Shown here in pieces: positions 1,166-23,062 of a stretch of DNA of 64,000 nt (positions within the stretch are counted from its first letter, which is position 1; the number at the start of each line of letters is the position of its first letter). A model generated the notes under the pieces. That model was not told the DNA's origin. It saw nothing but the letters and a program-made list of their open reading frames with translations, and ran no database searches. Location of the stretch: positions 11,940 to 75,939 of the forward strand of contig DASTWK010000017.1 in the NCBI GenBank assembly GCA_035776655.1. Reading direction: 5' to 3'. Source of the stretch: Mycobacteriales bacterium (GTDB lineage: Bacteria > Actinomycetota > Actinomycetes > JAFAQI01). The position numbers and the translations under genes are program-made.

Positions 1166-2614
1166 TCAGCCTTCGGGGCTGTCGCTGCCGCCCGGTGGCG
1201 CCGATGGTGCGGCAACGCGCTCTTGGTGCGGCACGACGGCATAGTGGCTGTCCGCGACCATCGTCAGCACCGCGTCCGGCGGTGGGGCGAGCTCGGCGCG
1301 TTCGGCGGCCGCCTGCAACCGCGTGCAGATCTTGTGGGTGGCCAGGAAGGAGAGCGGGGGCGCGATGATGAGCAGCACCCGCATGGCCCAGGTGAAGTCC
1401 ATCATGTCGAGGCCGAACGTGAAGGGGATGACGTCGTTCGCGCCGGCCACCGACAGCACGACGTAGAACACCAGAACCGCAATGCCGACGCCGGTGCGGA
1501 ACGGGTGGTAGCGCGGCCGTTGCAACAGCTCGTGCGGCTCGTGATCCCGGGTGAGCAGTCGCTCCACGAACGGGTGCGCGTAAATCATGACGAACAGCAG
1601 CACCGGCAGCACGACGGCGGGGACGAACACGTTCCAGGGGATCGTGTGGCCGAGGAAGCGGCTCTCCAGGTGCGGCATCAGCCGGAGCGATCCCTCGAGC
1701 CAGAACATGTACCAGTCGGGTTGAGATCCGGCCGAGACGACCGCCGGGTCATAGGGCCCGTAGAGCCAGATCGGGTTGATCTGTGCGTACGCTGCGAGCA
1801 GGGCCAGCACCCCGAAGATCATGAAGAACAGGCCCTGCGACTTCATCGTGTAGTTGGGCCAGATGTGGCTGCCGACGACGTTGCGTTCCTGATAGCCCTC
1901 CTTCGGGAACTGCGTGTGCTTCTGGTGCCAGACCGCCATCAGGTGCGCCGTGATGAGCACGAGCATCAGCCCGGGGATCAGCAGGACGTGCAGGATGTAG
2001 AGCCGTGGGATGAAAGCCTCTGCGCCCGGATACTGGCCGTTGAAGATGAACGTCGCGAGGTAGGGCCCGACCCAAGGGATGGACTCGAGGATCGAGTAGG
2101 CGATGCGCACGCCGGTTCCGGACAGCAGGTCGTCCGGCAGCGAGTACCCGGCGAAGCCCTCGACGATGGCCAGGATCGCCAGGGTGACGCCGATGATCCA
2201 GTTCATCTCGCGCGGCTTGCGGAAGGCGCCGGTGAAGAAGATCCGGCACATGTGCAGCACGATCGCGGCGACGAACAGAAGCGCGGCCCAGTGGTGGATC
2301 TGGCGGATCAGCAGCCCGGCTCGGATGTCGAACGTGATGTGGATGACAGATTCGTAGGCCTCGCTCATCCGCACGTGCTGCAGCGGCAAGTACGAGCCGT
2401 GGTAGCGGATGTCGTGCTCGGACGCGTGGAAGAAGAATGTCAGGAACGTGCCCGTGACGATGAGAATGGCGAACGTGTACAGGGCGATCTCGCCCAGCAT
2501 GAACGACCAGTGATCCGGAAAGATCTTGTTGAGCTGGTTGCGCAGCAGGTGGCCGGTGCCCAGCCGATCGTCCATCGCCCGCATGGTCCGGCGGGTCTTG
2601 CTCGGCTTGCTCAC
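1166..2614 (-). CDS. qcrB: Cytochrome bc complex cytochrome b subunit (actinobacterial, menaquinol type)
   Basis: PDHWSFMLGEIALY, IRQIHHWAA..LHMCRIFFTGAFRKPREMNW, LHV...AHL heme ligands, Qo motif PDWY. Confidence 0.95.
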   Translation of the reverse strand: MSKPSKTRRTMRAMDDRLGTGHLLRNQLNKIFPDHWSFMLGEIALYTFAILIVTGTFLTFFFHASEHDIRYHGSYLPLQHVRMSEAYESVIHITFDIRAGLLIRQIHHWAALLFVAAIVLHMCRIFFTGAFRKPREMNWIIGVTLAILAIVEGFAGYSLPDDLLSGTGVRIAYSILESIPWVGPYLATFIFNGQYPGAEAFIPRLYILHVLLIPGLMLVLITAHLMAVWHQKHTQFPKEGYQERNVVGSHIWPNYTMKSQGLFFMIFGVLALLAAYAQINPIWLYGPYDPAVVSAGSQPDWYMFWLEGSLRLMPHLESRFLGHTIPWNVFVPAVVLPVLLFVMIYAHPFVERLLTRDHEPHELLQRPRYHPFRTGVGIAVLVFYVVLSVAGANDVIPFTFGLDMMDFTWAMRVLLIIAPPLSFLATHKICTRLQAAAERAELAPPPDAVLTMVADSHYAVVPHQERVAAPSAPPGGSDSPEG

Positions 2615-2620
2615 CGCGGG

Positions 2621-3712
2621 TCACTCATCCTTGTTGTCCCGCGCCCAGAAGCTCGGGCCGAGCGGCATGTCGAACGGCCGCTGAGCCCGGAAGTAGCCCT
2701 CCCGGTCGACGTAGATCGGCAGCTGGGGAAGGGCGCGCGCGGCCGGCCCGAAGATGACCGTGCACCCGCGCGGCACGTCGAACGTCGACTGGTGGCAGGG
2801 GCAGAGCAGGTAGCCGGTCTGTCGCTCGAACAGTCCGACCGGGCAGCCGGCGTGGGTGCAGATCTTCGAGTAGGCGACGTGGTCGTCGGCCGCCCAGTGC
2901 TCTCGGCCGGGTAAGGGCTGGTTCACGCCGGGGCCGAGGTGGATGAGGAGCACGACGCTCTCGGCGTTGACCGGAAAGGAGGAGTCCGGGTCGTCCTCCG
3001 GCATCACCGTCACCATGCCACCGATGTCGATGTCGCCGAGGCGCACCGGCACCCGCGTGTCGATGTCGACCAGACGGATGTCCTTGGTCCAGGAGTTCGC
3101 GCGCAGCCGCGCCACCGGCCGCGGGCCCAGGTCCCGCAACCCGACGACGAACGGCACCGGCAGCAGCCCGAGCGCGGCCAACATCGTGCGGCGGACGAAG
3201 CTGCGCTGCTGCAGGCCCATCTCGGTGACCCCGCCGATGAGCTGCTCCTCGGCGGCGAACTCGTCCTCCGGCGAGGAGTGGTGCGTCGGGCGGTGTTGCT
3301 CCGACTTGACGGCCGGGATCAGGTGCTTGCCGATCAGAATCATTCCGACGCCGAGCCCGAGCATGGTCAGCCCGAGTCCGCTGCCGAGCACGAGGTTGAG
3401 CAGGTTGCCGAGGTGAGCGTCGTGAATCGGCAGCAAGATGTAGCCGAAGGTGAACAACAGCGATCCGGCGACCGACGCGACGAACGCGACCGTCACCGCG
3501 AACGAGACCCGCTTCTCTGCCGCCGGGTCGCGGTTGGAGCGCGGCGGCTTCTCCTGCGTCACTGCCGGCGCCGGGTGGGTGTGCGCCTCCGGGTCGGTCG
3601 GCCGGTGGAGCACGGCGTCGTAGGACGTGGCCATCGTCTCCGAGGCCAGGGGATAGGCGGGCAGCGGCAACTCCGCGGGGACCCGTGGAGTCTCCTCGCC
3701 GCGTTCGGTCAT
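2621..3712 (-). CDS. qcrA: Rieske iron-sulfur subunit of cytochrome bc complex
   Basis: CTHAGCP and CPCHQSTFD Rieske boxes, three N-terminal TM segments, RRSFVRR motif. Start chosen at ATG 3712. Confidence 0.93.
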   Translation of the reverse strand: MTERGEETPRVPAELPLPAYPLASETMATSYDAVLHRPTDPEAHTHPAPAVTQEKPPRSNRDPAAEKRVSFAVTVAFVASVAGSLLFTFGYILLPIHDAHLGNLLNLVLGSGLGLTMLGLGVGMILIGKHLIPAVKSEQHRPTHHSSPEDEFAAEEQLIGGVTEMGLQQRSFVRRTMLAALGLLPVPFVVGLRDLGPRPVARLRANSWTKDIRLVDIDTRVPVRLGDIDIGGMVTVMPEDDPDSSFPVNAESVVLLIHLGPGVNQPLPGREHWAADDHVAYSKICTHAGCPVGLFERQTGYLLCPCHQSTFDVPRGCTVIFGPAARALPQLPIYVDREGYFRAQRPFDMPLGPSFWARDNKDE

Positions 3713-3722
3713 CGGGGCGCGG

Positions 3723-3747
3723 CTACCCAGGCAAACGAGCGGCAAAC
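3723..3747 (-). promoter_or_regulatory. SigF/SigB-type promoter motif for qcrAB (GTTT-N15-GGGTAG)
   Basis: Minus strand reads GTTT gccgctcgtttgcct GGGTAG, ending 10 nt before the qcrA ATG. Confidence 0.6.
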
Positions 3748-3765
3748 GCGGCGGTCGCAGGCGCG

Positions 3766-3790
3766 GGTTAGCGCCGTGATCGACGGGTAG
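3766..3790 (+). promoter_or_regulatory. SigF/SigB-type promoter motif for ctaCD (GGTTA-N14-GGGTAG)
   Basis: GGTTA gcgccgtgatcgac GGGTAG upstream of the ctaC RBS (gagggagggg). Confidence 0.5.
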
Positions 3791-3847
3791 TCGCGACTCA
3801 GCGCCCGTGTGGCGCGCCGCTGCCGGCCGAGAGGGAGGGGACCGCGG

Positions 3848-4507
3848 GTGCCCTACACGAGCGTCTTCGACCAGATCTCGACATTCGAGTGGTCACTCGC
3901 CGGCGCCGTGTTCGCCCTCGTCCTCGCCGTCCTCGCGTTCGCCGTCTTCCGCTACCGCGCCGCTGCCCGAGACCATGCCTCCCAGGAAACCGAGCACCCG
4001 AAGGTCGAGCTGGTCTACGCCGTGCTGCTCCTGCTGGTTGCCATCGGCATCGTGAGCTACACGAGCCAGGTCGGCCAGCGCGACAGCGCCGTGGCCAGCA
4101 GCCCGGCCGTCCACCTGCAGGTGACCGGCTTCCAGTGGTGCTGGCGGTTCAGCTACGTCGGTGAACCGGTCACGGTGACCGCGACCTGCCAGAACGGCCA
4201 CTATCCGACGGTGGTGCTGCCGGCGCGGGAGCCCATTCACGTCACCACGACCTCCGGGGACGTCATCCACTCCTTCTGGATTCCCGAGTTCCGCTACAAG
4301 ATGGACTCCTTTCCCCACCACACCAACTCCTTCGACCTGACGATCCCGCGTGAAGGGCAGTGGCTCGGCCACTGCGCGGAGTTCTGCGGACTCGACCACG
4401 CGACGATGCTCTTCCACGTGAAGGCGGTCTCACCCACCGCGTTTCGTGCCTGGCTGCACACCCGAGCCACGACCGCTGCCGCCGCCACCGGCGGCCCGCG
4501 CTCGTGA
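3848..4507 (+). CDS. ctaC: Cytochrome c oxidase subunit II (CuA, no fused cytochrome c)
   Basis: Two TM helices, GFQWCWRF, DVIHSFW and CAEFCGLDHATM CuA ligands. GTG 3848 follows a purine-rich RBS. Confidence 0.93.
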   Translation: MPYTSVFDQISTFEWSLAGAVFALVLAVLAFAVFRYRAAARDHASQETEHPKVELVYAVLLLLVAIGIVSYTSQVGQRDSAVASSPAVHLQVTGFQWCWRFSYVGEPVTVTATCQNGHYPTVVLPAREPIHVTTTSGDVIHSFWIPEFRYKMDSFPHHTNSFDLTIPREGQWLGHCAEFCGLDHATMLFHVKAVSPTAFRAWLHTRATTAAAATGGPRS

Positions 4508-6141
4508 CGACGGCCGAGGTCGCCCGGCCGGACGAGGTCCTGCCGTCGGTGCCGCATGTCGGGGGCTGGCTGCTCACGACTGACCACAAACGCATCGCGG
4601 CGATGACGCTGGCCGTGGCGACGTTCCTGTTCTTCGGCATGGGCGTCCTGGCGCTCATCATGCGTTCCCAGCTGGCCCAACCCGGGCTGTCGATCGTGAG
4701 CCACGACGTCTACAACCAGATCTTCACGATCCACGGCTCCGGCATGATCTATCTGGTCATCACGCCGTTCGCCATCGCACTCGGCGTCTACCTCGTGCCG
4801 CTGCAGATCGGCGCACCGGCCATCGCCGCCCCGAAGACCACCATGCTCGGGTTCTGGCTCTACGTCATCGGTGCGGTGTCGCTGCTCTCCGGGTTCGCCT
4901 TGACCGGCGGCGCCGGCAGTGACGGGTGGACGGCGTACCCACCCTTGTCGGACAGCCAGTTCACCCAGGGCAAGGGCATGGACCTGTGGATGTTCGGCGT
5001 CTTCGTCGCCGTCCTCGGCATGATCCTCATGAGCGCCACCCTGTTGTGGACCGTGCTCATGAAGCGGATGCCGACGATGACGATGTTGCGGCTGCCGGTC
5101 TTCACGTGGTCGATGGTGGTGTCGGTGCTGATGGTGCTCGGCGCGTTCCCGTCACTGCTCGCGGCGCTGGGGCTGCTCGCCGTCGGACGGATGGACCCGA
5201 GCGTGTTCGACCACAACATCTGGAACATCGGGTTCCAGCACCTGTTCTGGTTCTACGGCCACCCGGTCGTCTATGTGATGTTCTTCCCGTTCGTCGGCGC
5301 TGTCGCCGAGGTGTTGTCGACGTTCGCGGGGCGACCGTTCTCGGGCTACAAGCCCACGGTGTTCTCCCTGCTGGCCTTCGCCGCGCTGTCGATGAGCGTG
5401 TGGGGCCACCACATGTTCACGACCGGACAGGCGACGAACGGTTACTACCAGCTGACGTCCACGTTGTTGCTGGTGCCGGCCGGCATCGAGTACTTCGGCA
5501 TGCTGTCGACGCTCATCGGCGGCAAGCTGCGGTTTCCGGTGCCGATGCTGTTCGCGCTCGCGTTCATTCCGCAGTTCCTGGTCGGCGGACTGACCGGCAT
5601 CATGGTCGCCACGCCCGGCCTGGACTACCACGCGCAGGACAGCTACTTCGTCGTCGGACACTTCCACTACACGCTGCTTGCCGGCAGCGTGTTCGGCCTG
5701 TTTGCCGGCTTCTACTTCTGGTTTCCCAAGGTCACCGGGGTGATGCTGCGCGAGGGCCTCGGCAAGCTGCACTTCTGGCTGATGGTGGTCGGCACCAATG
5801 TGACGTTCCTGCCGTTCTTCGCGCTCGGCATGCTCGGCATGCCGCGCCGGGTGGCGACCTATCCCGACCTGCCGTGGTGGGGAACGCTCAACCTCATCTC
5901 CACGATCGGCGCCGGCATCCTCGGCCTGGCGATGATTGCCTTCGCGATGAACATCGCCCTGTCGTTGACGTTCCGTCAGATTGCGCCCGCCGATCCGTGG
6001 GGCGGCCACACCCTCGAATGGGTGACGTCGTCACCGCCGCCACCGATGAACTTCAACGCGGACTGGCCGCTGCCGCGGGTGACGAGCTTCACGCCGCTGC
6101 TCGACCTGCGCAAGCGGGCGGCGGCGCGGGCCGCGTCATGA
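4504..6141 (+). CDS. ctaD: Heme-copper oxidase subunit I (A-family fold, atypical proton-channel residues)
   Basis: TDHKRI, IHGSGM, GHPVVY, WGHHMF, VGHFHY, GMPRR. GTGA overlap with the ctaC stop. Confidence 0.95.
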   Translation: MTTAEVARPDEVLPSVPHVGGWLLTTDHKRIAAMTLAVATFLFFGMGVLALIMRSQLAQPGLSIVSHDVYNQIFTIHGSGMIYLVITPFAIALGVYLVPLQIGAPAIAAPKTTMLGFWLYVIGAVSLLSGFALTGGAGSDGWTAYPPLSDSQFTQGKGMDLWMFGVFVAVLGMILMSATLLWTVLMKRMPTMTMLRLPVFTWSMVVSVLMVLGAFPSLLAALGLLAVGRMDPSVFDHNIWNIGFQHLFWFYGHPVVYVMFFPFVGAVAEVLSTFAGRPFSGYKPTVFSLLAFAALSMSVWGHHMFTTGQATNGYYQLTSTLLLVPAGIEYFGMLSTLIGGKLRFPVPMLFALAFIPQFLVGGLTGIMVATPGLDYHAQDSYFVVGHFHYTLLAGSVFGLFAGFYFWFPKVTGVMLREGLGKLHFWLMVVGTNVTFLPFFALGMLGMPRRVATYPDLPWWGTLNLISTIGAGILGLAMIAFAMNIALSLTFRQIAPADPWGGHTLEWVTSSPPPPMNFNADWPLPRVTSFTPLLDLRKRAAARAAS

Positions 6142-6620
6142 GCACCCCGACGGTCATCGCCGGCTGGGGCGCCGTCAACGGGGTGCTGGTCGCCATCCTG
6201 CTCGCGTACGGCGGGGGCGTCTTCGAGCTCTCGCTCTATGCATCGGTGGTGCTGCTGCTCGAGCTGGTGGCCGTGGCGGCCTTCGTCAGCAACCAGCGGC
6301 TGGGGGACACCCCTCCCGTCTCACCGGCGCCGAGCCGCAGTCGGCAGTCCCTGCTGGCGGCGCTGGTCGTCGCTTTCGTCGGGCTGGGGCTGGTCTACCG
6401 GGTGTACATGATGATCCCGGCGGCCTATCCGGGCCTGGCGCTCCTCGGCGAGTGGGGCAAGGCGCTGTGGGAGCGCATCTCACCGGATGAGGCCGACGAC
6501 GTGCCGGAGCCCGAGCCGGCGGAAGGCGGCGGCGGTGCCGCTGGTGCGATCGCAGTGGCCGGCGCGGTGGCTGCCGGCGTCGCCACCGCCCGGTCGCGGT
6601 GGCGGCGGCGGACGGAGTGA
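6138..6620 (+). CDS. Small multi-TM membrane protein, possible oxidase subunit IV (CtaF-like)
   Basis: ATGA overlap with ctaD; about four hydrophobic segments with an acidic/Pro linker. The CtaF call rests on position and topology only. Confidence 0.55.
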   Translation: MSTPTVIAGWGAVNGVLVAILLAYGGGVFELSLYASVVLLLELVAVAAFVSNQRLGDTPPVSPAPSRSRQSLLAALVVAFVGLGLVYRVYMMIPAAYPGLALLGEWGKALWERISPDEADDVPEPEPAEGGGGAAGAIAVAGAVAAGVATARSRWRRRTE

Positions 6621-7195
6621 TGGCGATGGGCGTTGCGCACATGGCGGAGATGGGACTCGAGACGTCGGTGCTGGCTCCGGTCATCGTCCTGTTGGCGCGG
6701 CGCGTCCGGCTGCCCCTCGATCGGCTGGCCGTGCCGGCCGCTGCCGCACTCCCGCTGTTCCTCGGCGTCCACTCCGCGGTGACGATGACGATGCCGTTCC
6801 GCGAACCCCCGTTCTGGCAGCACCTCGGGCTGCACGCGCTGCTCCTTGCCGCCGGGGTCATTTTCTGGCTGCCGGTGCTCGGCGGTCGGCGCCGGCTCAG
6901 CGAACCGGGTCGCATGGTCTACCTCTACCTGGCGATGCCGACGATGGACCTGTCCGGCGTCTACGTCGTGCTGCGCGGCGACGCAGCGGGCGGTCTGGCG
7001 ATGATCGTGGCGATGCTGCCGGTCGGCCTCACCGCAGTGGCAATCACGTGGCGGTGGATCGTGGCGGAGGAACGCGCCGCGCGCGCGACCGCCTCACTGG
7101 CGGAGTGGGATGCCGACGAGCGCCGCCAGGGCGGTCACGCCGATGAACACCCAGGTGATGTAGTCACCGACGTGGCCGGAGTGCAACCGGCGTAG
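6620..7195 (+). CDS. Cytochrome c oxidase assembly protein (caa3 CtaG-like)
   Basis: AHMAEM..APVIVL and QHLGLHALLLAAGVIFWLPVL His-bearing TM motifs; overlaps the upstream stop. Confidence 0.7.
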   Translation: MAMGVAHMAEMGLETSVLAPVIVLLARRVRLPLDRLAVPAAAALPLFLGVHSAVTMTMPFREPPFWQHLGLHALLLAAGVIFWLPVLGGRRRLSEPGRMVYLYLAMPTMDLSGVYVVLRGDAAGGLAMIVAMLPVGLTAVAITWRWIVAEERAARATASLAEWDADERRQGGHADEHPGDVVTDVAGVQPA

Positions 7196-8929
7196 CCCGG
7201 ATCCCACCATCGCGAACGGGTCGAGAACGCGTTCGGCGGCGCGCCGGATCTTCTCGGCGTACAGCCCGAGCGCCGCGACGAGCAGCGCCAGCACCGTCGA
7301 GGTGAGCCCCAGCGCGACACCCAGGGTTGTCCAGTCGATGCCGGTCGGAAGGGCAACGGAATGGGCCGCTCGACCGAACAGCGCCTGCTGCGCATATCCG
7401 GCGTGGTCGACGAACCGGGTGGCGCCGCGGCCGAGGGCGTGGGTGATCGGCGAATAGATGCCGCAGACGAGGCAGCCGGCGACCAACGTGACGATCGCGA
7501 GCATCATCGTCGCGGGCATGCGTGGCAGGCTCTGGGTCTCCCGCTCCTCCTGGTCACCTGACGTCTGTTGCTGATCTTCGGCCGGCACCGGCCCCAACCC
7601 GAGGAAGATGCGGGCTCCCGCGCGCAGCACCGCGCCACCGGTGAGCGCGGAGACCGCGACGAACAGCACGGGGCCGATCCAATAACCACGCGCCAGCAGC
7701 GCGTCCTCGCCGATCGCCTTGCCCAGGCTCGTCGCGAACGGCGGCAGCCCGGACAAGGCGAGCCCCGCAACGGCGAACAGCACGGCAGTCGCCTTCGCAT
7801 CCCGCCCCTTGCCGTGCAACGTGGCCTCGTCGACGCTGCCATAGCGGGCGAGGATGACGCCGGCGAGCAAGAACAGCGCCGACTTGGCTCCGGCGTGTCC
7901 CAGCACGTAAACCGCCGCACCAGCGGTGCCGGAGTCGTCGAGGGTGGCGGCGGCACAGATGAACAAGCCGACGTGAGCGATCGTCGAGTAGGCGAGTAGC
8001 CGCTTGAGGTGGCGTTGCATCAGGCACATCACAGCCCCGACGACGGCGGTGAGGATGCCGAGGACGAGCAAGGCCCGGCGGATGTCGTCAGGCGGAAGGA
8101 TCCCGGAGAAGGTCGTCCAGTAGACGCGGAAGACACCGTAGACGCCGAGCTCGACCATGATGCCCGAGAACATGACGCACACCGGTGTCGGGGCGACTGC
8201 GTGCGCATCGGCGAGCCAGAAATGGAACGGAACCATCGCGGCCTTGACCAACCAGCCGGTGACGACGAGCACGAACGCGATGACGACCAGTGCATCGAGG
8301 GGGGACCGGTCGAGCACCTGACCGATCTGAGCGAGACCCAACTGCCCCGTGTGTGCGTAGATCAGTCCGATCCCCATGAGCGTCAGGTAGGCGCCGAAAG
8401 AGTTGACGATGCCGAAGTTGAGGGCACCCTGCACCGATGTCGGGTCCTCCACCTTGAAGCCAGTGAGGGCATAGGCCACCGCTCCCATCAGCTCGAAGAA
8501 CACGAACATGTCGAACAGGTCGCCGGTCAGCGCGAACCCGGTCATGCCGGCGAGGAACAGCAGCATCAGCGCATGGAAATGCGCCTCGACGGAGTCGAAG
8601 TAGCGCCAGGAGAAGACGAGCGCGCACAGCATCAAGGCGCCGGCGAGCAGCGCCGCTCCGCTCCCGACGCGGTCGGCCACCAGCACGATGCCGACGCTGT
8701 GCCCGTGTTTCGGGGTCCAGTTGCTTGCCCACGTCACCACCCGCCCGCCGGCGGTGTGGGCGAACAGCGCTGCGTCGAGTCCGACCGTGGCCGCGGCGGT
8801 GCCAGTGGCGAGAACGTCGATGAGCGTCCGCGGCAGCCACCGGCCCACCGACAAGAGGACGGCCGCCGCGATGATCGGGATGACAATGGCAAGCGGTGCG
8901 AGCTGTGCAGCTCCCGAGTGGAAGTTCAT
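7094..8929 (-). CDS. mrpD: Mrp/complex I antiporter-like subunit (MrpD type, with NuoL/MrpA-like C-terminal extension)
   Basis: DLFDMFVFFELM, VKAAMVPFHFWLADAH, LKRLLAYSTIAHVG, GLPPF..GK; ends RRLHSGHVGDY. Confidence 0.85.
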   Translation of the reverse strand: MNFHSGAAQLAPLAIVIPIIAAAVLLSVGRWLPRTLIDVLATGTAAATVGLDAALFAHTAGGRVVTWASNWTPKHGHSVGIVLVADRVGSGAALLAGALMLCALVFSWRYFDSVEAHFHALMLLFLAGMTGFALTGDLFDMFVFFELMGAVAYALTGFKVEDPTSVQGALNFGIVNSFGAYLTLMGIGLIYAHTGQLGLAQIGQVLDRSPLDALVVIAFVLVVTGWLVKAAMVPFHFWLADAHAVAPTPVCVMFSGIMVELGVYGVFRVYWTTFSGILPPDDIRRALLVLGILTAVVGAVMCLMQRHLKRLLAYSTIAHVGLFICAAATLDDSGTAGAAVYVLGHAGAKSALFLLAGVILARYGSVDEATLHGKGRDAKATAVLFAVAGLALSGLPPFATSLGKAIGEDALLARGYWIGPVLFVAVSALTGGAVLRAGARIFLGLGPVPAEDQQQTSGDQEERETQSLPRMPATMMLAIVTLVAGCLVCGIYSPITHALGRGATRFVDHAGYAQQALFGRAAHSVALPTGIDWTTLGVALGLTSTVLALLVAALGLYAEKIRRAAERVLDPFAMVGSGLRRLHSGHVGDYITWVFIGVTALAALVGIPLRQ

Positions 8930-8938
8930 CGTGGTCGC

Positions 8939-9286
8939 CTAGCCCTGAAGGGCCACGAGCTCGTCCGGGTCGACCGTGTCGTGCCGTTTGGCGATCTGGA
9001 TCGACAGCGCGAGCAGCAGTGCCGTGACCGTCGCGGACACGACGATGTCGGTCAGGCAGAGTGACTGCACCACAGGGTCGACGACCTGCTTGGTCGGCTT
9101 CGCGGTTGACCCGAACACCGGTGCCGGCGCGTTGGTCTGGTAGCCGACCGCCATCAGCAGCACGTAGGTCCCGGCCTGAGCGATCGACAGGCAGATCGTC
9201 GCGTGGACCAGGTTGCGGCTGCGGGCGATGCCGAACCCGCCCACCAGCACGAGGGCGCCGGCGACGAAGTAGGCGTAGTGGCTCAT
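8939..9286 (-). CDS. mrpC: Mrp subunit C
   Basis: 115 aa, three TM, DPVVQSLCLTDIVV motif. Confidence 0.88.
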   Translation of the reverse strand: MSHYAYFVAGALVLVGGFGIARSRNLVHATICLSIAQAGTYVLLMAVGYQTNAPAPVFGSTAKPTKQVVDPVVQSLCLTDIVVSATVTALLLALSIQIAKRHDTVDPDELVALQG

Positions 9287-10053: not shown

Positions 10054-10289
10054 CGGCCCCCCCGGATCTTGCTCACGGCCAGGAGAACCATCAGTGGCAC
10101 GAAGGCGGTGCCCACGGCAAGCTGGCTCAGCGCGACATCCGGTGCTTGCAAGACGATGAACAGCACGGTGAGTGACAACCCGAACAGTGACAACGTCACC
10201 GCCTGGCGTCGGGGATCCGAGGTCAGCACCACCGCCACCCCGGCGAAGAGCACCAGTGTCAGCGCGAGGCCGACCACTGCGGTCATCAT
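10050..10289 (-). CDS. DUF4040 / MbhD-like small Mrp subunit
   Basis: 79 aa, QAPDVALSQLAVG motif; coupled to mrpB. Confidence 0.8.
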   Translation of the reverse strand: MMTAVVGLALTLVLFAGVAVVLTSDPRRQAVTLSLFGLSLTVLFIVLQAPDVALSQLAVGTAFVPLMVLLAVSKIRGGR

Positions 10290-10308
10290 CGGCGGCTCCG
10301 TTCGGAGG

Positions 10309-10617
10309 TCATTGCGGTCCCTCGGGTTCGATGATCTGGCGCTGCTGCGCCCCCACCCGTCCGATCGCGGCCTCGAGGATCGGTCCGGACAACATGACCA
10401 ACGCCGTCGTGAGGATCTCCAGGCCGGTGGCGATGCTCCACGTGCTGTCGACGACGAGTGCGGCGCAGAACAGCGGGGCCCCCACCGTGGTCACCGGAGT
10501 GATGAAGTGCAGCTTGCCGAACGTGGTCCGCATCACGACCGCGCCGAAAGCCGCGAGCACGATGATCAGCAGCGACAGGGACAGCATCACGTCTGCCGCC
10601 AGCGTCCGCCCGCTCAT
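10309..10617 (-). CDS. mrpG: Mrp subunit G
   Basis: KLHFITPVTTVG motif, three TM; ATG 10617 overlaps the mrpF stop. Confidence 0.8.
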   Translation of the reverse strand: MSGRTLAADVMLSLSLLIIVLAAFGAVVMRTTFGKLHFITPVTTVGAPLFCAALVVDSTWSIATGLEILTTALVMLSGPILEAAIGRVGAQQRQIIEPEGPQ

Positions 10618-15541: not shown

Positions 15542-16698
15542 GCCGGTCCTCCCGCCGCGGCCCCGGCGGTCGACAGCGGTGCGCGCGGCAATGCTTGATA
15601 GACCTCCAGGTAACCCGCCGCCATCCGCTCCGGTGTGTACGCCGTCGCACGCGATCGTGCCGCCCGGCCAGCCGACTGCAGCCGCTCCGGGCACTGCACG
15701 AGCGTCTGCACCGTCGCCACGAGCTCGTCGGAGCTGGCGGGATCGACGTAGCAGGCGGCGTCGCCCCACAGCTCGCGCAGGCTCGGGATGTCGCCGAGGA
15801 CGAGCGCGCAGCCGGCCTGCGCGGCCTCCAGCACGCCGAGCCCGAACGGCTCGTAGCGAGCGGGTGCGACGTAGACGGCCGCTCGCGACAGCAGCGCGGA
15901 CAGCTCCGCTGCCGGCAGCACACCGACGAGCGAGGCAGCGGGCTCCGGGACGTGACTCGCGTCGGGTGCGCGGGCTGGCGCGCCGCGCGCCACGACCCCG
16001 GGGGGGTGCGGGTCGCCTGCGATGACGACGGGCCAGGGGAGCCGCGGCGCGTCCGCGGCCAGCCGACGCAGGTTCTTGGCCTCGTCCCACACCCTGCCGG
16101 TGCCGACGATGAGCTGCTCTTTGTCGGCACCCGTCGCGTCCGGCGGAGCTGTCCGACCGTTGAGTACGACGGTGCCGCCACCGTAGCCGTAGCAGCGGGA
16201 GAGCGCGGCCAGCATCGCCTGGGTCGGCGCGACGACGGCGGTCGCGGCGAACAGCCCCTCCGTCACCCGTCGGCGGTAGCTGTCCCACTCGGCGGGCGCG
16301 TCGACACCGTGCACCGCCTGCCACCACGACAGCACACAGGAGTGCGCCACCACGACGGTGGGCGCGTGCCACGGCAGTGCGGCATGCGCATAACCGTTGA
16401 GGTGTACGACCTCCGGCCGCAGCTGAGCCTCGAGGTCGAGCAACCATTCGCCGGCCGCGTCCACCTCCGACCACGGATCGGCCATCCACTCGAGGGCGAA
16501 GGTGCTCTCGTGCACCCCGGCGACCGGCGTGCCGGCAACGGCCCGCCGTTGGTGTGCGTCGAGCGGCCGCCCCATCGTCGCCAGGTGCACCTCGACGTCG
16601 TACGCCGCTAGCGCGGTCACCAGCTCGAGCGCGTAGGTCCACACGCCACCGACGGTGTCGGCGGTCATCAGCAGCCGGCGTGGTGCACTGGCTGTCAT
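15538..16698 (-). CDS. GT4 family glycosyltransferase
   Basis: MTADTVGGVWTY and YEPFGLGVLEAAQAG (EX7E motif). Confidence 0.9.
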   Translation of the reverse strand: MTASAPRRLLMTADTVGGVWTYALELVTALAAYDVEVHLATMGRPLDAHQRRAVAGTPVAGVHESTFALEWMADPWSEVDAAGEWLLDLEAQLRPEVVHLNGYAHAALPWHAPTVVVAHSCVLSWWQAVHGVDAPAEWDSYRRRVTEGLFAATAVVAPTQAMLAALSRCYGYGGGTVVLNGRTAPPDATGADKEQLIVGTGRVWDEAKNLRRLAADAPRLPWPVVIAGDPHPPGVVARGAPARAPDASHVPEPAASLVGVLPAAELSALLSRAAVYVAPARYEPFGLGVLEAAQAGCALVLGDIPSLRELWGDAACYVDPASSDELVATVQTLVQCPERLQSAGRAARSRATAYTPERMAAGYLEVYQALPRAPLSTAGAAAGGPA

Positions 16699-17678
16699 CG
16701 GCCGTAGATCCGATCGATGACCTGCGCCACCTCGACCAGCTCGGCGTTGGCCGGATCGAAGCGCTCGCCGGCCGCGAGGCGGCGCGCCCAGGTGACGGCG
16801 GCCCGACCGCCCCAGTCATCCGGGGGCTCGCTGAGCCGGCGGCTGGTCGTGCCGGTGTGCTGCCAGGCGCTGAAGTCATAGAACGAACCGTCGACGTTGT
16901 GCAGTGCCAACGAACCGCGGGTGCCGTGCAGGGTTGCTCCGATGACGGCGTCGCGGCCGGCGTGCAGGAACCAGGAGCAGGTCAGTGTGACGGTGGCGCC
17001 GGTGGCGAGGTCGAGTCGAGCGGTGGCGTAGTCCTCGACGACGATGGGCGCCGGGTCCAGCGGCCGGCCGTGCGCGAACAGCCGCGCCGTGACGGCGTCG
17101 ACCTTGGGCCGGTCGAGCAGCCACAGCGCCAGGTCGATGAGATGAATACCGAGATCGATCACGCAGCCCCCGCCGGACTGGGCGGGATCGGTGAACCACG
17201 GCTTGTCCGGGCCGTAGGCGTTGTGGAAGGTGAGGTCGGCGGCGTAGACCTCCCCGATCGCACCGGCGGCGAGCGTCGCGCGGATGGGCTCGATGGCCGA
17301 CAAGTGGCGGTAGGACAGATCGACGGCCAGCAGTCGGTCGGCGCCGCGGGCGGTGTCGACAACCGCCTCGCACTCGGCCGCGGTGCGGCCGAGTGGCTTC
17401 TGGCAGAACACGGCCAGTCCGCGCTCCAAGGCACTGATGGTCTGCTGGGCGTGCAGCGCACTGGGCGTCGCGATCACGATCCCGTCCAGGCCGAGCTCGC
17501 CGTGGAGCAGCTCGTCTGCATCGACGACGTGCCCGCCCGCGGCAGCTGCTGCCGCGGCGGCGGTGGAGGCATCGCTGTCGGCCACGGCAACCACGTCAAC
17601 CGCTCCGCAGCGAGCGATGGCTTCCATGCGGTTGCGTCCGATCCAGCCGACACCGAGGAAGCCGAGCCGTGGGGTCAC
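16695..17678 (-). CDS. Gfo/Idh/MocA family oxidoreductase
   Basis: GFLGVGWIG, IATPSALH, FCQKPLG, GGCVIDLGIHLID. Confidence 0.92.
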   Translation of the reverse strand: MTPRLGFLGVGWIGRNRMEAIARCGAVDVVAVADSDASTAAAAAAAAGGHVVDADELLHGELGLDGIVIATPSALHAQQTISALERGLAVFCQKPLGRTAAECEAVVDTARGADRLLAVDLSYRHLSAIEPIRATLAAGAIGEVYAADLTFHNAYGPDKPWFTDPAQSGGGCVIDLGIHLIDLALWLLDRPKVDAVTARLFAHGRPLDPAPIVVEDYATARLDLATGATVTLTCSWFLHAGRDAVIGATLHGTRGSLALHNVDGSFYDFSAWQHTGTTSRRLSEPPDDWGGRAAVTWARRLAAGERFDPANAELVEVAQVIDRIYGR

Positions 17679-18643
17679 CGGGTCACCAGCGCTTTCACGA
17701 AGCCGTCCGGTCGGTCGGCCATCACCTCGAATGCGGCGTCGAGCCGATGCAGCGGGAACGTGTGGGTGAACAGCGGTGCCGGGTCCAGCTGCCTGGAGGC
17801 GACGGCCGCGGCCGCGGCACGGATGCCGCCGAGGCGCACCTCCGGGTCGCGCTCATGCGCGTTGACGACATCGATACCGCGCCAGTTCCACAGCTGCATG
17901 TCGACGGTGCGCGGACCGTCCTGGTGGAAGCCGGCGACAACCAGCCGACCGCGGGTCTTCGTCAGCTGCCCGGCCAGATCGAGTGGCCACTGCGCTCCGA
18001 CCGCTTCCACGACGACGTCGCAGAGAGCGCCGTCGGTGAGTCGGTGCACTTCCTCGACGACGTCGTCGCCGAGCGCAACGGTGTCCTTGGCCCCCATCGC
18101 CCGCGCGACGTCAAGGGCGAACGGGCGGCGGGAAACGGCGATCACGTGCGCACCGGCATCGGCCGCCAGTGCGCCGACCAGGGTCCCCAGGAAGCCGGCC
18201 CCGACGATGCACACCGTCTGATCCGGGCCGAAGCCGCTGCGGGCGGCGATGTTGAACGCGCAGCCCAGCGCCTCACCCGGGAACGGCTGGCCCTCCAGTG
18301 CCGCCGGGAGCACGACGACCTCGTGCGCCGGCACCTCGACCCGCTCGGCGAACGCGAGGTCCGACAGGAACGCGACGGGATCCCCGACGCCGACCTCGGT
18401 CACGCCGGCTCCGATCTCGGCGACCCGTCCCCACGCCTCGTGGCCGGGCGCGCCGGGCGCCAGCGGGTAGCTGAACCAGGGGCGGCCCTCCCACACCGGC
18501 AGGTTCGACCCGCAGACGCCGCACCCGTCGACCTCGACCTGCACCGAGCCAGCGGCGGGCGAGTCGAGATCGACGGGGACGAGCTCGGTGCGGCGGGGCG
18601 CGGCGACGACTGCTGCTCGTGCACCGCGCCGGCCCGGGCTCAG
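17675..18643 (-). CDS. Zn-type MDR dehydrogenase (threonine/sugar dehydrogenase-like), start uncertain
   Basis: CGVCGSN, GHEAWG, GAGFLG. The frame stays open upstream of GTG 18544 to CTG 18643 and encodes RAAVVAAP. Confidence 0.8.
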   Translation of the reverse strand: MSPGRRGARAAVVAAPRRTELVPVDLDSPAAGSVQVEVDGCGVCGSNLPVWEGRPWFSYPLAPGAPGHEAWGRVAEIGAGVTEVGVGDPVAFLSDLAFAERVEVPAHEVVVLPAALEGQPFPGEALGCAFNIAARSGFGPDQTVCIVGAGFLGTLVGALAADAGAHVIAVSRRPFALDVARAMGAKDTVALGDDVVEEVHRLTDGALCDVVVEAVGAQWPLDLAGQLTKTRGRLVVAGFHQDGPRTVDMQLWNWRGIDVVNAHERDPEVRLGGIRAAAAAVASRQLDPAPLFTHTFPLHRLDAAFEVMADRPDGFVKALVTR

Positions 18644-19692
18644 CTGACCTCCGCGATGAGCGGGTGGCGTTCACCCTGCAGCCACCCGACCAGGCGCTCC
18701 AGTCCGGCCTTCACGTCGACCTTCGTCGACCAGCCGCTGACCTGCTGGAAGCGGCGGGTATCGGACACGTACCAGCGCTGGTCGCCGACCCGCCAGTCGC
18801 CGAACTCGAGCCGGGGCTTCGCGCCGGTGAACGCGGAGACCATCTCGATCACCTCGAGCAGGCTGACTGCGTTGTCGGGGCCGCCGCCGAGGTTGAAGGC
18901 CTGCCCGCGGAATCGTTCGATGTCGCCGGTGGCCAGCAGCATCGCCTCGACGAGGTCATCGATGAAGAGCACATCCCGGACCTGCCGACCGTCGCCGTAG
19001 AGCGTGATCGGCTCGTTCGCGAGCGCCTGCTTGGCGAAGTGCGCGACCCAGCCCTGGTCTTCGTTCCCCTGCTGGTGCAGGCCGTAGATGCAGCTCATCC
19101 GGAACACGACGGTCGGCAGGCCGTAGCTCTTCGCGTAGTCGAGCACGTACTGGTCGGCGCCGCCCTTGGAGCAGCCGTAGGGGCTGCAGAAATCCAGCGG
19201 CCGTCGCTCGCTGATGCCGTGTCGGCGCAGTTGCGGGTCGCTCGGCTCGTAGCGGCCGGCGGCGTCGGTGACCTCCACGTCCTCGAGGCCGCCGTAGACC
19301 TTGTTGGTAGAGGTGAACAGCAACGGCACCGGCCGGTCCAGACGGCGCAGCTCCTCGAGCACGTTGAGTGTTCCCGCCAGGTTCACCGCGAAGTCGTGTC
19401 GCGGATCCGTCACGCTGGTCGTCACAGCCACCTGGGCGGCGAAGTGGAACACCCGCTCGGCAACGCGCAGAGCGGCACGCACCGTCGACCGGTCGCGCAC
19501 ATCGCCCTCACTGATCGTGAGCCGGCCCGGATGCTGCTCGCGCAACCACCGCAGGTTTCGGCGGACCCCTGGCCGGGACAGGTCGTCGAGCACCACGACG
19601 GAGCGCCCCGCCCGGAGCAACCGATCAGCCACGTTCGTGCCGATGAAACCGGCGCCGCCGGTGATGACGGTCCGACCAGTTCCCTGCTTCAT
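18640..19692 (-). CDS. NAD-dependent epimerase/dehydratase (CDP-paratose epimerase-like)
   Basis: ITGGAGFIG, STNKVYG, SPYGCSKG, RMSCIYG; ATG 19692. Confidence 0.9.
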   Translation of the reverse strand: MKQGTGRTVITGGAGFIGTNVADRLLRAGRSVVVLDDLSRPGVRRNLRWLREQHPGRLTISEGDVRDRSTVRAALRVAERVFHFAAQVAVTTSVTDPRHDFAVNLAGTLNVLEELRRLDRPVPLLFTSTNKVYGGLEDVEVTDAAGRYEPSDPQLRRHGISERRPLDFCSPYGCSKGGADQYVLDYAKSYGLPTVVFRMSCIYGLHQQGNEDQGWVAHFAKQALANEPITLYGDGRQVRDVLFIDDLVEAMLLATGDIERFRGQAFNLGGGPDNAVSLLEVIEMVSAFTGAKPRLEFGDWRVGDQRWYVSDTRRFQQVSGWSTKVDVKAGLERLVGWLQGERHPLIAEVS

Positions 19693-19741
19693 GCAGCCTC
19701 CACCTCGCCCGGCGCCCACGCGAAACGCGGGCTTCGCCAAC

Positions 19742-20869
19742 TCAGACCGTCAGACCGCGCTTGGCGAGCTCGGACGTGGCAGCGTCGACCGAGTCGACCG
19801 CGACCTGTCCCTCGAGCCATTCCGCGAGCTCCGTCAGTCCGGCGTCGAAGTCGACCTGCGGGGCGAACCCCAGCACCTCCCTCGCGAGGGTGATGTCGGC
19901 GAAGCAGTGTCGGATATCGCCGACGCGGTACTTGCCGGTCACCTGCGGCTCGATCGCCTCACGCCCGAGGATCCGGGCCAGCCGGTTGGCGACCTCGTTC
20001 ACCGAGACACTGGTGCCACTACCGATGTTGATCACCCGTCCCGCGACGTCCGGTGAGACCAGCGCTAGCCGGCAGGCTCGCGCTACGTCGTGGACGCTGA
20101 CGAAGTCCCGTCGCTGCTCGCCGTCTTCGAAGATCATCGGCGACCGGTCATTGAGCAGCCGGGACGCAAAGATAGCGAGCACGCCCGTGTAGGGGTTGGA
20201 CAGCGCCTGGTAGGGGCCGTAGACGTTGAAGAAGCGCAGGGCCGTGGTGGACACCTGATAGGCCTCGCCGAACAGCAGGCAGAGCCGCTCCTGGTCGAAC
20301 TTGTTGAGCGCGTAGACCGAGGACAGCGCCGGTGGCTTCGTCTCCGGGGTCGGCACCGGAGTCAGCTGCTCGCCCGCGGGACCGTGCGGCTCCCACTGCC
20401 CACGCGCCAGCTGCTCCCGGCTGCGGCTCGCCGCGGTCGTCGCCGTTCCTTCGCGGTCCAGGTAGAGGCCCTCGCCGTACACGCTCATGCTGGAGGCCAC
20501 GACCAGTCGCTCGACCGGGTGGTCGAGCAGCGCCTCGAGCAGCACAGCCGTTCCGACCGTGTTGGCGCTGGTGTAGTCACTGATCTCGTACATGCTCTGC
20601 CCGACGCCGACCCGCGCGGCAAAGTGCACCACCCGGTCCACGCCGCCCAGTGCCGCCCGAACCGCGCGCGGGTCACGGACGTCGCCGACGCACAGTTCCA
20701 CCTCCGGCGACAGGTAGTCCGGCCGCCCCTCCTCCGCGCCCAGCTGGTCGCCGTGCACTTGCGGGACCAGAGCGTCGAGCACGCGGACGTGATCTCCGCT
20801 CCGGAGCAGCTCGTCGGCCAGGTGGGCACCGATGAATCCAGCACCGCCGGTGATCAGCGTCGTCGCCAC
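19742..20869 (-). CDS. NAD-dependent epimerase/dehydratase
   Basis: ITGGAGFIG, ASSMSVYGEG, YALNK (YxxxK), RFFNVYG. Confidence 0.92.
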   Translation of the reverse strand: MATTLITGGAGFIGAHLADELLRSGDHVRVLDALVPQVHGDQLGAEEGRPDYLSPEVELCVGDVRDPRAVRAALGGVDRVVHFAARVGVGQSMYEISDYTSANTVGTAVLLEALLDHPVERLVVASSMSVYGEGLYLDREGTATTAASRSREQLARGQWEPHGPAGEQLTPVPTPETKPPALSSVYALNKFDQERLCLLFGEAYQVSTTALRFFNVYGPYQALSNPYTGVLAIFASRLLNDRSPMIFEDGEQRRDFVSVHDVARACRLALVSPDVAGRVINIGSGTSVSVNEVANRLARILGREAIEPQVTGKYRVGDIRHCFADITLAREVLGFAPQVDFDAGLTELAEWLEGQVAVDSVDAATSELAKRGLTV

Positions 20870-20907
20870 GACCGACCCTTCTGTCGGTCCCCGGCAGCGC
20901 CGGGGAC
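20870..20907 (-). promoter_or_regulatory. Two overlapping leader hairpins upstream of the glycosyl/Mrp operon start
   Basis: GACCGAC/GTCGGTC (20870-20889, loop carries the SD AGAAGG) and GTCCCCGG/CCGGGGAC (20887-20907) share 3 nt. Confidence 0.45.
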
Positions 20908-20993
20908 GGGAAGCATGTCGTCGTACGGCGCCTACCCGGCCCCTATGCGGGTAGTCATTGAAGATGCTGAAGCCGGTCGAGTGGTCCGGCGTC

Positions 20994-21572
20994 TCAGGCG
21001 GTCGGCGCCGCTCCGAGCAACCGGAAGTAGATGCTGGTCCGGATCGACGGACCGAGGTTGAGGCTGCCGGAGTGCTCGAGCTGCGGGTGCATGATCAGCG
21101 CGTCGCCGGCCTCGAGCGGCACCGGTGTCGGTGGCCGCCTGTTGTCCCCGTGGTGCGAGCCCGGCCAGACGTGGACGCAGCCGTCCTGCTCGCCGCTGGT
21201 GGTCAGCGCCACCCCGACGATGCCGCGATAAGACCGGCCGCCGGCCCACGGGGGGATCGCGTCGATGTGCGGCTGCAGCGGCCATTCCTGCGGCTCGTCG
21301 GGGAAGCGCAGCAGCAACTGCGGCTCCGCCCATTCGTCGCCCTCCTGCCAGCCCAACGCCTCGGCGGCGCCAGGTGGCAGCGCTCCCCACACCTCCGGCT
21401 CCCAGCGCAGGTGAGGGAAGAACGTCGCCTCCTGACACTGCACGATCTCCTGGCTGCTCAACCCGTAACGACGGATGGCCAGGTTGAGCAGGCGCAGCGC
21501 CGCTGCCACCGCATCGGGCGCGACTGCCCGGCGCAGGACGACATAACCGTCGGTCTCCAGCGAGGTGGCCAC
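20994..21572 (-). CDS. Phytanoyl-CoA dioxygenase (PhyH)-like 2OG-Fe(II) oxygenase
   Basis: LETDGYVVL, PHID (HxD), VWPGSH, EHSG. Confidence 0.75.
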   Translation of the reverse strand: MATSLETDGYVVLRRAVAPDAVAAALRLLNLAIRRYGLSSQEIVQCQEATFFPHLRWEPEVWGALPPGAAEALGWQEGDEWAEPQLLLRFPDEPQEWPLQPHIDAIPPWAGGRSYRGIVGVALTTSGEQDGCVHVWPGSHHGDNRRPPTPVPLEAGDALIMHPQLEHSGSLNLGPSIRTSIYFRLLGAAPTA

Positions 21573-21733
21573 GGCAACATCATTTCAACCGATCGCCCGC
21601 GGACTGTGGCGACGCTCCCGAGGCGGAGCGATCTCCGAGGTTTTTTGGGATCTCAGCGTGAGAGAAGCCGGATGTTCGTGAAGAAGACATTGACGGCCGC
21701 GGCGCGCTCGGACGCGGCGGGCGAGGAGGCTTC

Positions 21734-23062
21734 GTGACGCGTGTCGCCGTCGTGGGAACCGGTTACGTCGGCACCGTCACCGCCGTCTGTTTCGCCTGGC
21801 TGGGTCACGAGGTGGTCGGTTTCGACCTCGACGCCTCCAGAGTCGGGCAGCTGGCGGCCGGCCAGCTGCCGTTCGTGGAGCCGGGGCTGCCGAGCCTGTT
21901 GAGCGACACGCTCGCCACCGGCCGGCTGTCGTTCGTCGACGATCCGGCCGCGGTCGGGTCCACCGACGTCATCTTCCTGTGTGTCGGCACGCCCACGGGG
22001 CCGGGCGGGATGCCGGACATGTCACAGGTCGGTGCGGCCGCGCATGCCGTCGCCCAACATCTGCGTGACAGCGCCATCGTCGTGAACAAGTCGACGGTGC
22101 CGGTGGGATCCGGCAACTGGGTGCGGACGATCATCGAGGAAGCGCTGCCGGCGGGTCGCCGCATTCGTTTCGGCGTGGTCTCGAACCCGGAGTTCCTGCG
22201 TGAGGGCGCCGCTGTCGAGGACTTCCTCTTCCCCGACCGCATCGTGCTCGGCGGCGAGAACGGCTCGCTGGCCACCGTCGCGCGCCTCTACGACCGGGTC
22301 CTGCGGCAAGACTTCCCGGGCGCGCGGCCGGCGCGGCTGCCCGCTCTGGTGCAGACGACGTTGCCCTCCGCCGAGATGGTCAAGTACGCCGCCAATGCGT
22401 TCCTCGCCACCAAGATCTCCTTTGCCAACGAGATCGCGACGATGTGTGAGCTCGTCGGCGCGGACGCGGGGGAGGTCCTGCCGGCCATCGGCGCGGACTC
22501 CCGGATCGGCCCACGATTCCTCCAACACGGGTTGGGGTGGGGCGGATCCTGCTTCGGCAAGGACGTCGCCGCGCTGATCGCGACGGGTGAGGAGTACGGC
22601 CACTGCTCACCGATCCTGCGGGCCGCGGTCGAGGTCAACGAGGCACAGCGAGCCGCGGTGCTGCGCAAGCTGCAGATGGCGCTGAAGGTCCTCAAGGGAC
22701 GCCGCGTGGCGGTCCTGGGTCTGGCGTTCAAGCCGGGCACGGACGACCTGCGGGACTCGCCGGCCGTGGATGTCATCCGGCGGCTCCACGCCGCCGGTGC
22801 GGTCGTCAGTGCCTACGACCCGGTGGTGAAGCACGTGCCCGCGCTCGACGACCTGCCGGTGCGGATCAGCAGTGACGTCTATGACACAGCCGATCGTGCG
22901 GACGCGGTCGTGGTGGCCACCGAATGGGCGGAGTTCGCCGACCTGGACCTGCACCGGCTCGCCGAACACATGAGCGGGCGGGTGGTGCTCGACGCGCGCT
23001 CGGTGCTGGACCGGCAGCGGGCCGCAGCGGCCGGTCTCGCCCTCAGCGGTTTCGGCTGGTGA
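21734..23062 (+). CDS. ugd: UDP-glucose/GDP-mannose 6-dehydrogenase
   Basis: VVGTGYVG, NKSTVPVG, SNPEFLREG, GWGGSCFGKD, FKPGTDDLRDS. Confidence 0.93.
   Translation: MTRVAVVGTGYVGTVTAVCFAWLGHEVVGFDLDASRVGQLAAGQLPFVEPGLPSLLSDTLATGRLSFVDDPAAVGSTDVIFLCVGTPTGPGGMPDMSQVGAAAHAVAQHLRDSAIVVNKSTVPVGSGNWVRTIIEEALPAGRRIRFGVVSNPEFLREGAAVEDFLFPDRIVLGGENGSLATVARLYDRVLRQDFPGARPARLPALVQTTLPSAEMVKYAANAFLATKISFANEIATMCELVGADAGEVLPAIGADSRIGPRFLQHGLGWGGSCFGKDVAALIATGEEYGHCSPILRAAVEVNEAQRAAVLRKLQMALKVLKGRRVAVLGLAFKPGTDDLRDSPAVDVIRRLHAAGAVVSAYDPVVKHVPALDDLPVRISSDVYDTADRADAVVVATEWAEFADLDLHRLAEHMSGRVVLDARSVLDRQRAAAAGLALSGFGW

Follow-up and report, generated by a model that had tools for sequence, protein, structure and literature searches.

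We analysed a 64,000-nucleotide (nt) stretch of DNA, hereafter the window, from a Mycobacteriales bacterium (assembly GCA_035776655.1, contig DASTWK010000017.1, positions 11,940 to 75,939 of the forward strand), and focused on a locus in which three gene modules lie side by side. These are an atypical cytochrome bc/haem-copper oxidase set (module 1, 1166–7195), an Mrp-type cation/proton module with the gene order of the archaeal Mbh membrane arm (module 2, 7094–11356), and a sugar cassette ending in a TIGR04290-family methyltransferase (module 3, 11364–20869, with a PhyH-like gene and a UDP-glucose dehydrogenase gene carrying it on to 23062). The source genome is a 69.5%-complete metagenome-assembled genome (MAG) of 2.37 Mb in 95 contigs, and the window is about 70% G+C and uniform in composition. 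Genes were called by third-position G+C and start-codon context and checked against Pfam and NCBIfam (Table 1).

In module 1, qcrB-qcrA on the minus strand diverge from ctaC-ctaD-X-ctaG on the plus strand, and a pirin gene lies beside qcrB-qcrA, also on the minus strand. A 16-gene minus-strand run, leading from two SDR-type sugar epimerase/dehydratase genes (epi1 and epi2) to mrpD, converges on ctaG. Nearly all of its junctions are ATGA or GTGA overlaps and the rest are gaps of at most 19 nt, except for 49 nt between the two epimerase genes and a question over the start of the zinc-dependent alcohol dehydrogenase (ADH) gene. With an ATG, GTG or TTG start, this gene begins at 18544, leaving a 95-nt gap, and none of these starts covers the conserved N-terminus (RAAVV..ELV). 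Homology to ADH N-termini extends through the gap, and the start is therefore probably CTG 18643, overlapping the epi2 stop codon as CTGA. ADH homologues in other phyla likewise show an apparent gap, of 120–230 nt, before the ADH gene. A preliminary description of this locus had named the same three units at the same coordinates, and the Pfam and NCBIfam searches bear it out. It had also called the minus-strand run tight, with no gap above 19 nt bar the one of 49 nt; the junctions and the 49-nt gap are as it said, but with canonical start codons the ADH gap is an exception that the probable CTG start would remove. The 7-nt gap that it placed between the methyltransferase gene and mrpE stands, because homology of MrpE to its relatives begins at residue 29, which fixes the start at 11347–11356.

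Table 1. Features of the three-module locus (window coordinates).
Feature	Positions	Strand	Evidence
qcrB paralogue, cytochrome b of second bc complex	1166–2614	-	NF050120 640 bits, cut-off 500
qcrA paralogue, Rieske subunit	2621–3712/3745	-	NF050121 309 bits, cut-off 275; QcrA_N and Rieske domains
SigF/SigB-type motif GTTT-N15-GGGTA facing qcrA	3724–3747	-	Sole exact match in 64 kb; 0.13 expected
SigF/SigB-type motif GGTT-N15-GGGTA facing ctaC	3766–3789	+	Pattern match
ctaC-like subunit II	3848–4507	+	TIGR02866 149.9 bits, cut-off 147.7; NF050117 162 bits, below cut-off 250
Atypical haem-copper oxidase subunit I (ctaD)	4504–6141	+	COX1 424 bits; 530 bits, under NCBIfam cut-offs 670 and 880
Small membrane protein X	6138–6620	+	About 4 hydrophobic segments
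CtaG-like (Caa3_CtaG) membrane protein	6617–7195	+	PF09678 25.8 bits, just below cut-off 27.7
Block absent from L200: Mrp, cassette, PhyH-like and UDP-glucose dehydrogenase genes	7072–23095		blastn
mrpD	7094–8929	-	Proton_antipo_M (PF00361)
mrpC	8939–9286	-	Oxidored_q2 60.2 bits, passes
MbhE/MnhB fusion	9283–10053	-	MnhB 80.4 bits, passes; MbhE 17 bits, below 27
MbhD	10050–10289	-	MbhD 52.1 bits, passes
mrpG	10309–10617	-	PhaG_MnhG 34.5 bits, passes
mrpF	10614–10868	-	MrpF_PhaF 27.1 bits, passes
mrpE	10865–11356	-	MNHE 23.4 bits, just under cut-off 27; homology to relatives' MrpE clear
TIGR04290-family SAM methyltransferase, last cassette gene	11364–12191	-	344.3 bits, cut-off 300, E 2.7e-103
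Three PF13524 (CgeB-type) glycosyltransferases and one GT4	12188–16698	-	Pfam; homologues 45–74% identical, order kept in other phyla
GFO/IDH/MocA oxidoreductase, Zn-ADH, two SDR sugar epimerase/dehydratases	16695–20869	-	Pfam/NCBIfam
PhyH-like dioxygenase	20994–21572	-	PF05721; frequent cassette neighbour in Actinomycetota
UDP-glucose 6-dehydrogenase	21734–23062	+	TIGR03026 419 bits

A complete canonical ctaE-qcrCAB / ctaCD(F) locus, whose QcrC carries two CXXCH motifs, is encoded on contig C91 of the same genome, and the window set is therefore a paralogue, with 43% (ctaD) and 61% (qcrB) identity to the canonical copies. Measured against the actinobacterial bcc-aa3 system (QcrCAB plus CtaCDEF), its QcrA and QcrB score above the cut-offs of the actinobacterial NCBIfam models and its CuA, CuB and haem ligands are intact, whereas QcrC, CtaE and CtaF are missing and neither CtaC nor CtaD reaches the cut-offs of the family. 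None of the proteins encoded in 1166–7195 contains CXXCH, and a dihaem QcrC is found only in the canonical set. CtaC keeps the H...CxxxCxxxHxxM ligands of the CuA site and has no haem c domain. An alignment of the window CtaD with 81 homologue segments and the canonical CtaD shows GSPDVAFPRLN of the canonical protein changed to GAPAIAAPKTT, HPEVY to HPVVY and VPTGVKFF to VPAGIEYF. The exchanges of the D-channel Asp for Ala, of the gating Glu for Val and of the K-channel Lys for Glu run throughout the atypical CtaD clade, which spans Streptomyces, Pseudonocardiaceae, Mycobacteriales MAGs, Jatrophihabitans and Acidiferrimicrobium and retains the haem and CuB ligands. Across 80 loci with an atypical ctaD, ctaC is a neighbour in 78 and the qcrB paralogue in 73, and a CtaG-like gene was detected in 33. 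The conserved CtaG core ends ...TWRWI.EE in all homologues, with variable tails beyond it. Protein X matches nothing in Pfam or NCBIfam and has homologues at two of the compared loci (L195 and L200; 44–51% identity). The atypical oxidase set is, in short, a conserved actinomycete paralogue.

The set also differs from bcc-aa3 in being preceded by putative SigF-type promoters. A search of the 64 kb for G[GT]TT-N14-18-GGGTA gave exactly two matches, which lie back to back in the 135-nt gap between qcrA and ctaC and face outward. Set against the mycobacterial SigF consensus GTTT-N14-19-GGGTA (PMC4694148), the qcrA motif is an exact match and the ctaC motif a GGTT variant. The -10 box of the qcrA motif (3724–3728) sits 11 nt before ATG 3712, which is the likely start of a near-leaderless qcrA. 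Because the whole 2.37-Mb genome holds just 15 such sites, no more than for a composition-matched control pattern, the occurrence of two in a single gap is not chance. At 34 of 79 orthologous loci a SigF-type motif is found within the 800 nt that precede ctaC, where about 1.7 per strand would be expected, and a SigB/F/G-type sigma factor is encoded on contig C44 (TIGR02980, 318 bits; cut-off 234). The consensus match, the distance to the start codon, the conservation and the sigma factor gene all agree with SigF/SigB-dependent promoters, and we infer that the module 1 promoters depend on SigF. On contig C44, the sigma factor gene (45443–46114), the sole one of its type above the cut-off, lies about 3 kb from a strict SigF-type motif (42675–42697). 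In Streptomyces (loci L232–L272) the motif occupies a conserved position about 400–900 nt upstream of ctaC on the opposite strand, where it points at a divergent gene, qcrB being several kb away in these genomes.

Two published observations bear on what such a set might do. The SigF regulon of Mycobacterium smegmatis is induced upon deletion or inhibition of the aa3 oxidase (PMC7693655), and the QcrB paralogue QcrB3 of Streptomyces coelicolor was found in spores and proposed to be spore-specific (PMC7931247). Among the S. coelicolor paralogues QcrB2 and QcrB3 described there, the window set resembles QcrB3 as a paralogous set beside a canonical one; the likeness is one of description and does not imply orthology to SCO7234–7236. 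It differs from what is described for the M. smegmatis SigF regulon, in that the passages searched in the two sources (PMC4694148, PMC7693655) mention no alternative bc/aa3 set. Taken together, the conserved motifs, the SigF response to loss of aa3 (PMC7693655) and the spore QcrB3 (PMC7931247) make it reasonable to read module 1 as, most likely, an alternative respiratory branch induced under stress or in dormancy.

Module 2 has the order mrpE-F-G-MbhD-MbhE/MnhB-mrpC-mrpD, with a single antiporter-like subunit (one PF00361 protein). The module contains no MrpA, no second PF00361 copy is adjacent, and neither a hydrogenase or redox module nor a NuoH-like coupling subunit (MbhI-N) was found in the window or in the loci of relatives. 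On these grounds it counts as neither a canonical Mrp nor an Mbh. It has the MrpB, C, E, F and G domains of canonical Mrp antiporters (CPA3, groups 1/2) without their MrpA, its MbhD, MnhB, MrpC, MrpF and MrpG domains passing the Pfam cut-offs. It shares with the archaeal Mbh/Mbs membrane arm (MbhA-H) the gene order, including MbhD and MbhE, and the single antiporter-like subunit, but it is bacterial, usually stands alone and lacks MbhI-N. The same seven genes, in the same order, were found in 7 of 60 relatives surveyed (35 of the 60 being of the same family), in each case away from any cta/qcr or cassette genes and between flanks unlike those in the window; 80 further Mrp loci from many soil phyla likewise stand alone. 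In the window no separate promoter region precedes the module. A SigF-type motif was considered as a general feature of Mrp operons and rejected: enrichment is modest (9 of 80 loci have the motif at the expected position, about 1.7 expected), and the motif is absent in the family relatives. Among the MbhE/MnhB homologues of seven genomes (G001, G031, G432, G440, G460, G474 and G704), the frame in several holds one in-frame TGA, which suggests two adjacent in-frame genes or read-through there.

We compared 50 genomes that carry an atypical ctaD with a class-level sample of 400 genomes that served as background, and found an Mbh-type Mrp module in 28 of the former and 15 of the latter. The association persists within genera when kinship is ignored: in Streptomyces, 12 of 18 oxidase genomes have Mrp against 31 of 147 (odds ratio 7.5, p = 1.4e-4), in Pseudonocardia 4 of 10 against 10 of 111 (odds ratio 6.7, p = 0.016), and the pooled within-genus odds ratio is about 7. 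In 4 of the 28 genomes with both modules (loci L203, L210, L221 and L230) the two lie at most 10 kb apart, where less than 1% would be expected, and L092 is a further case of adjacency. In L230 (Jatrophihabitans sp. SMAG_U981) the mrpE frame starts ahead of the stop codon of ctaG, with both genes on one strand and no gap between them (12647–12701), and the oxidase set and Mrp look like one operon. On gene content, the oxidase set and Mrp are the only two of the three modules that tend to co-occur in other bacteria.

This co-occurrence might still be pure juxtaposition, the modules having no functional relation and the oxidase and Mrp meeting through shared ecology, large accessory genomes or shared ancestry. 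Such an account fits the many genomes in which one is found without the other, as most Mrp-bearing genomes lack the atypical oxidase (only 2 of 33 in Streptomyces have it) and 22 of the 50 oxidase genomes lack Mrp. It also fits the varying orientation of the adjacent cases, the separate contigs on which G031 and G127 carry the two modules, and statistics in which related genomes count as independent. It is hard to square with enrichment inside two genera, with an adjacency rate well above expectation and with the contiguous same-strand arrangement in L230, and the methyltransferase, taken as a comparison gene, shows no such enrichment; on balance we consider it unlikely. A more committal reading takes the oxidase set and the single-antiporter Mrp as a working pair within a stress-induced respiratory branch, in which Mrp would supply or manage the ion translocation of which the oxidase alone may be incapable. 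The two could be joined by physical docking, as redox modules are to the Mrp-like arms of Mbh and complex I, or by tight functional coupling. The asymmetry of the association, with most Mrp genomes lacking the oxidase, argues against an obligate complex, and we hold a working pair to be a speculative and quite doubtful proposal.

The nine genes of module 3 run epi1-epi2-ADH-GFO-GT4-CgeB3-CgeB2-CgeB1-MT, where GFO is the GFO/IDH/MocA oxidoreductase gene and MT the methyltransferase gene. A search with the methyltransferase returned hundreds of loci, of which the best 80 genome loci were compared, together with 80 metagenome loci. Among the former the nine genes keep their order, at 45–74% identity, in Actinomycetota, Acidobacteriota, Bacteroidota, Latescibacterota, Armatimonadota and Verrucomicrobiota; the same order is seen in L002, L006, L023, L062 and many others, and the cassette ends with the methyltransferase at all syntenic loci examined. 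The window methyltransferase scores above the curated cut-off of TIGR04290 (meth_Rta_06860), and its neighbourhood of CgeB-type and GT4 glycosyltransferase genes with sugar redox and epimerase genes recurs with unchanged order in dozens of soil bacteria belonging to several phyla. A literature search on TIGR04290 and on the cassette found no study. Here as elsewhere the cassette proteins are all soluble and no exporter accompanies them, and the product is probably a small methylated sugar compound made in the cytoplasm. The cassette thus appears to be a widespread, horizontally mobile and independent unit. Two features set the window copy apart, namely its head-to-tail fusion to an Mrp operon, seen at no other locus, and its lack of a B12-radical SAM partner gene. 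In L003, the closest cassette relative with downstream sequence, the gene directly after the methyltransferase is not mrpE but a PhyH homologue, 69% identical to that of the window. A PhyH-like gene is present in 34 of the 80 metagenome loci. A UDP-glucose dehydrogenase gene lies near the cassette in L022 and L027, and the window enzyme is likely to supply precursor for the cassette.

Elsewhere the cassette has no detectable link to module 1 or module 2. In none of the 160 genome and metagenome loci was Mrp found within 6–10 kb of the methyltransferase, nor was the methyltransferase-mrpE junction, and the 80 metagenome loci, which include the closest relatives (72–79% identity), hold neither Mrp nor cta/qcr genes. 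Of all 160 loci, L062 alone has oxidase genes near the cassette. The methyltransferase is absent from all 50 genomes with an atypical oxidase, and cassette and methyltransferase from all 60 relatives. Mbh-type Mrp occurs in 2 of 50 cassette genomes, never adjacent, which equals the background rate of 15 in 400.

Upstream of epi1, only a loose match to the SigF-type pattern is present (GACT-N15-GGGTAG, 20956–20932, 62 nt upstream), one of just five loose matches in the window. It is at the same time half of a palindrome, TACCCG-N9-CGGGTA (20932–20953), in the PhyH/epi1 intergenic region, which could be a regulator-binding site instead of, or besides, a SigB-like -10 box. As a general feature of the cassette, a SigF-type motif was tried and rejected, the strict form being found in 0 and the loose form in 1 of 29 loci. 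A scan of 6500–23500 for sigma-70 and terminator consensus sequences yielded nothing useful.

These comparisons bear directly on the central proposal of the preliminary description, which had joined all three modules into one general-stress or dormancy system, in which the cassette would produce a glycoconjugate coupled in function to a dedicated respiratory branch that translocates ions. Several features of the window speak for it. Contiguity and the 7-nt junction make co-transcription of cassette and Mrp likely, the respiratory genes have SigF-type promoters and epi1 a loose SigB-like motif, a gene for a SpoIIE/PP2C-type phosphatase lies nearby, and one Solirubrobacteraceae locus (L062) offers a further cassette-oxidase adjacency. 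Against these stand the lack of any cassette-Mrp adjacency or oxidase-genome methyltransferase in the loci and genomes compared, the background frequency of Mrp in cassette genomes, the presence of the cassette in phyla without the other modules, the poor conservation of the epi1 motif, the soluble enzymes without an exporter, and a syntenic relative, described below, that keeps the oxidase set and lacks the rest. We therefore regard a single integrated system as very improbable, its non-co-occurrence elsewhere being what the description itself had named as telling against it. Other elements of the description fared better: the SigF/SigB-like motifs that it saw before the respiratory units prove to be the only two strict ones in the window, and the TIGR04290 neighbourhood that it gave as widespread in soil bacteria keeps its nine-gene order across at least six phyla. 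Its respiratory branch under a stress sigma factor, tied to Mrp, is upheld in part, by motif conservation at the oxidase locus, by co-occurrence and by some adjacency, while the coupling to the cassette falls away.

The syntenic relative is an uncultured Actinomycetota MAG (L200), in which 6701–12550 matches window 1220–7071 and 12596–13776 matches window 23096–24277 by blastn. In L200, ctaG is followed directly by the counterpart of the gene at window 23096, and the window thus has an extra 16.0 kb; its genome contains no Mrp and no methyltransferase, with the oxidase set kept. Homology to L200 stops at 7071; beyond this point the ctaG frame simply continues into the extra DNA, which accounts for the 102 nt by which the convergent ctaG and mrpD overlap. 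We examined ctaG tails for the direction of the indel, and they vary in all homologues. As for a mobile genomic island, the site is empty in a syntenic relative, but Pfam scans and a repeat search found no integrase, tRNA or flanking direct repeats at the block boundaries. The block is probably composite, because Mrp and the cassette have never been seen together at another locus.

Could the arrangement be an assembly artefact, a chimeric MAG contig whose modules are not truly contiguous? The source is an incomplete metagenome bin in many pieces, and the junction was not found on any independent contig. However, each end of the 16-kb block lies precisely where one intact gene gives way to the next, a Shine-Dalgarno sequence and both reading frames are preserved where the methyltransferase gene meets mrpE, and composition is uniform; given the synteny with L200 on either side of the block, a chimera would also take two precise mis-joins. 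An artefact is thus exceedingly improbable.

The locus is, in our judgement, probably a lineage-specific mosaic of three evolutionarily separate modules and not one conserved system. Module 1 would be a second, paralogous respiratory set serving as a stress- or dormancy-induced alternative branch. Module 2 would be a self-contained seven-gene Mrp-type cation/proton module in Mbh order, alone in most genomes and statistically tied to module 1, and module 3 a mobile TIGR04290/CgeB cassette set down beside a spare oxidase driven by stress promoters and its Mrp neighbour. With the cassette abutting mrpE by 7 nt, the Mrp genes would have lost any intergenic promoter and would probably be read through from the cassette. 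Co-transcription across 11356–11364 is thus probable in this organism, as an operon fusion that would be peculiar to this lineage. Several points weigh against this mosaic reading. The host genome is only a 69.5%-complete MAG; the direction of the indel, whether gain here or loss in L200, is judged from one syntenic relative and phyletic rarity; and the co-occurrence tests ignore phylogenetic kinship, with an unbiased random Streptomyces subsample that is small (2 of 3 against 31 of 147, p = 0.12). One locus, L062, has the cassette followed downstream by ctaC-ctaD...qcrA-qcrB, and the loose SigB-like motif at epi1 could still render all three modules co-inducible in this organism.

Read as a mosaic, the locus no longer offers the tempting link by which the much-catalogued TIGR04290 cassette would be interpreted through respiration or ion transport. 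What the comparison does define is a conserved actinomycete respiratory paralogue without QcrC and CtaE, with a subunit I that lacks the canonical D- and K-channel residues and with SigF-type promoters, together with a measurable association of this paralogue with an Mbh-order Mrp module. It provides a concrete lead to how respiration and ion balance might be maintained in soil actinomycetes under stress or dormancy, and culturable Streptomyces and Pseudonocardia are available for its pursuit.

Beyond the locus, the window differs from L200 by a second indel (26169–27960), where the window alone has genes for a second MFS transporter and a small DUF6297-like protein. The most conserved segment common to the two is the gene for the SpoIIE/PP2C-type phosphatase (27977–28843; 84% nucleotide identity). 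This gene is a few kb away from the SigF-type promoters, and its product could be a partner-switching input phosphatase.

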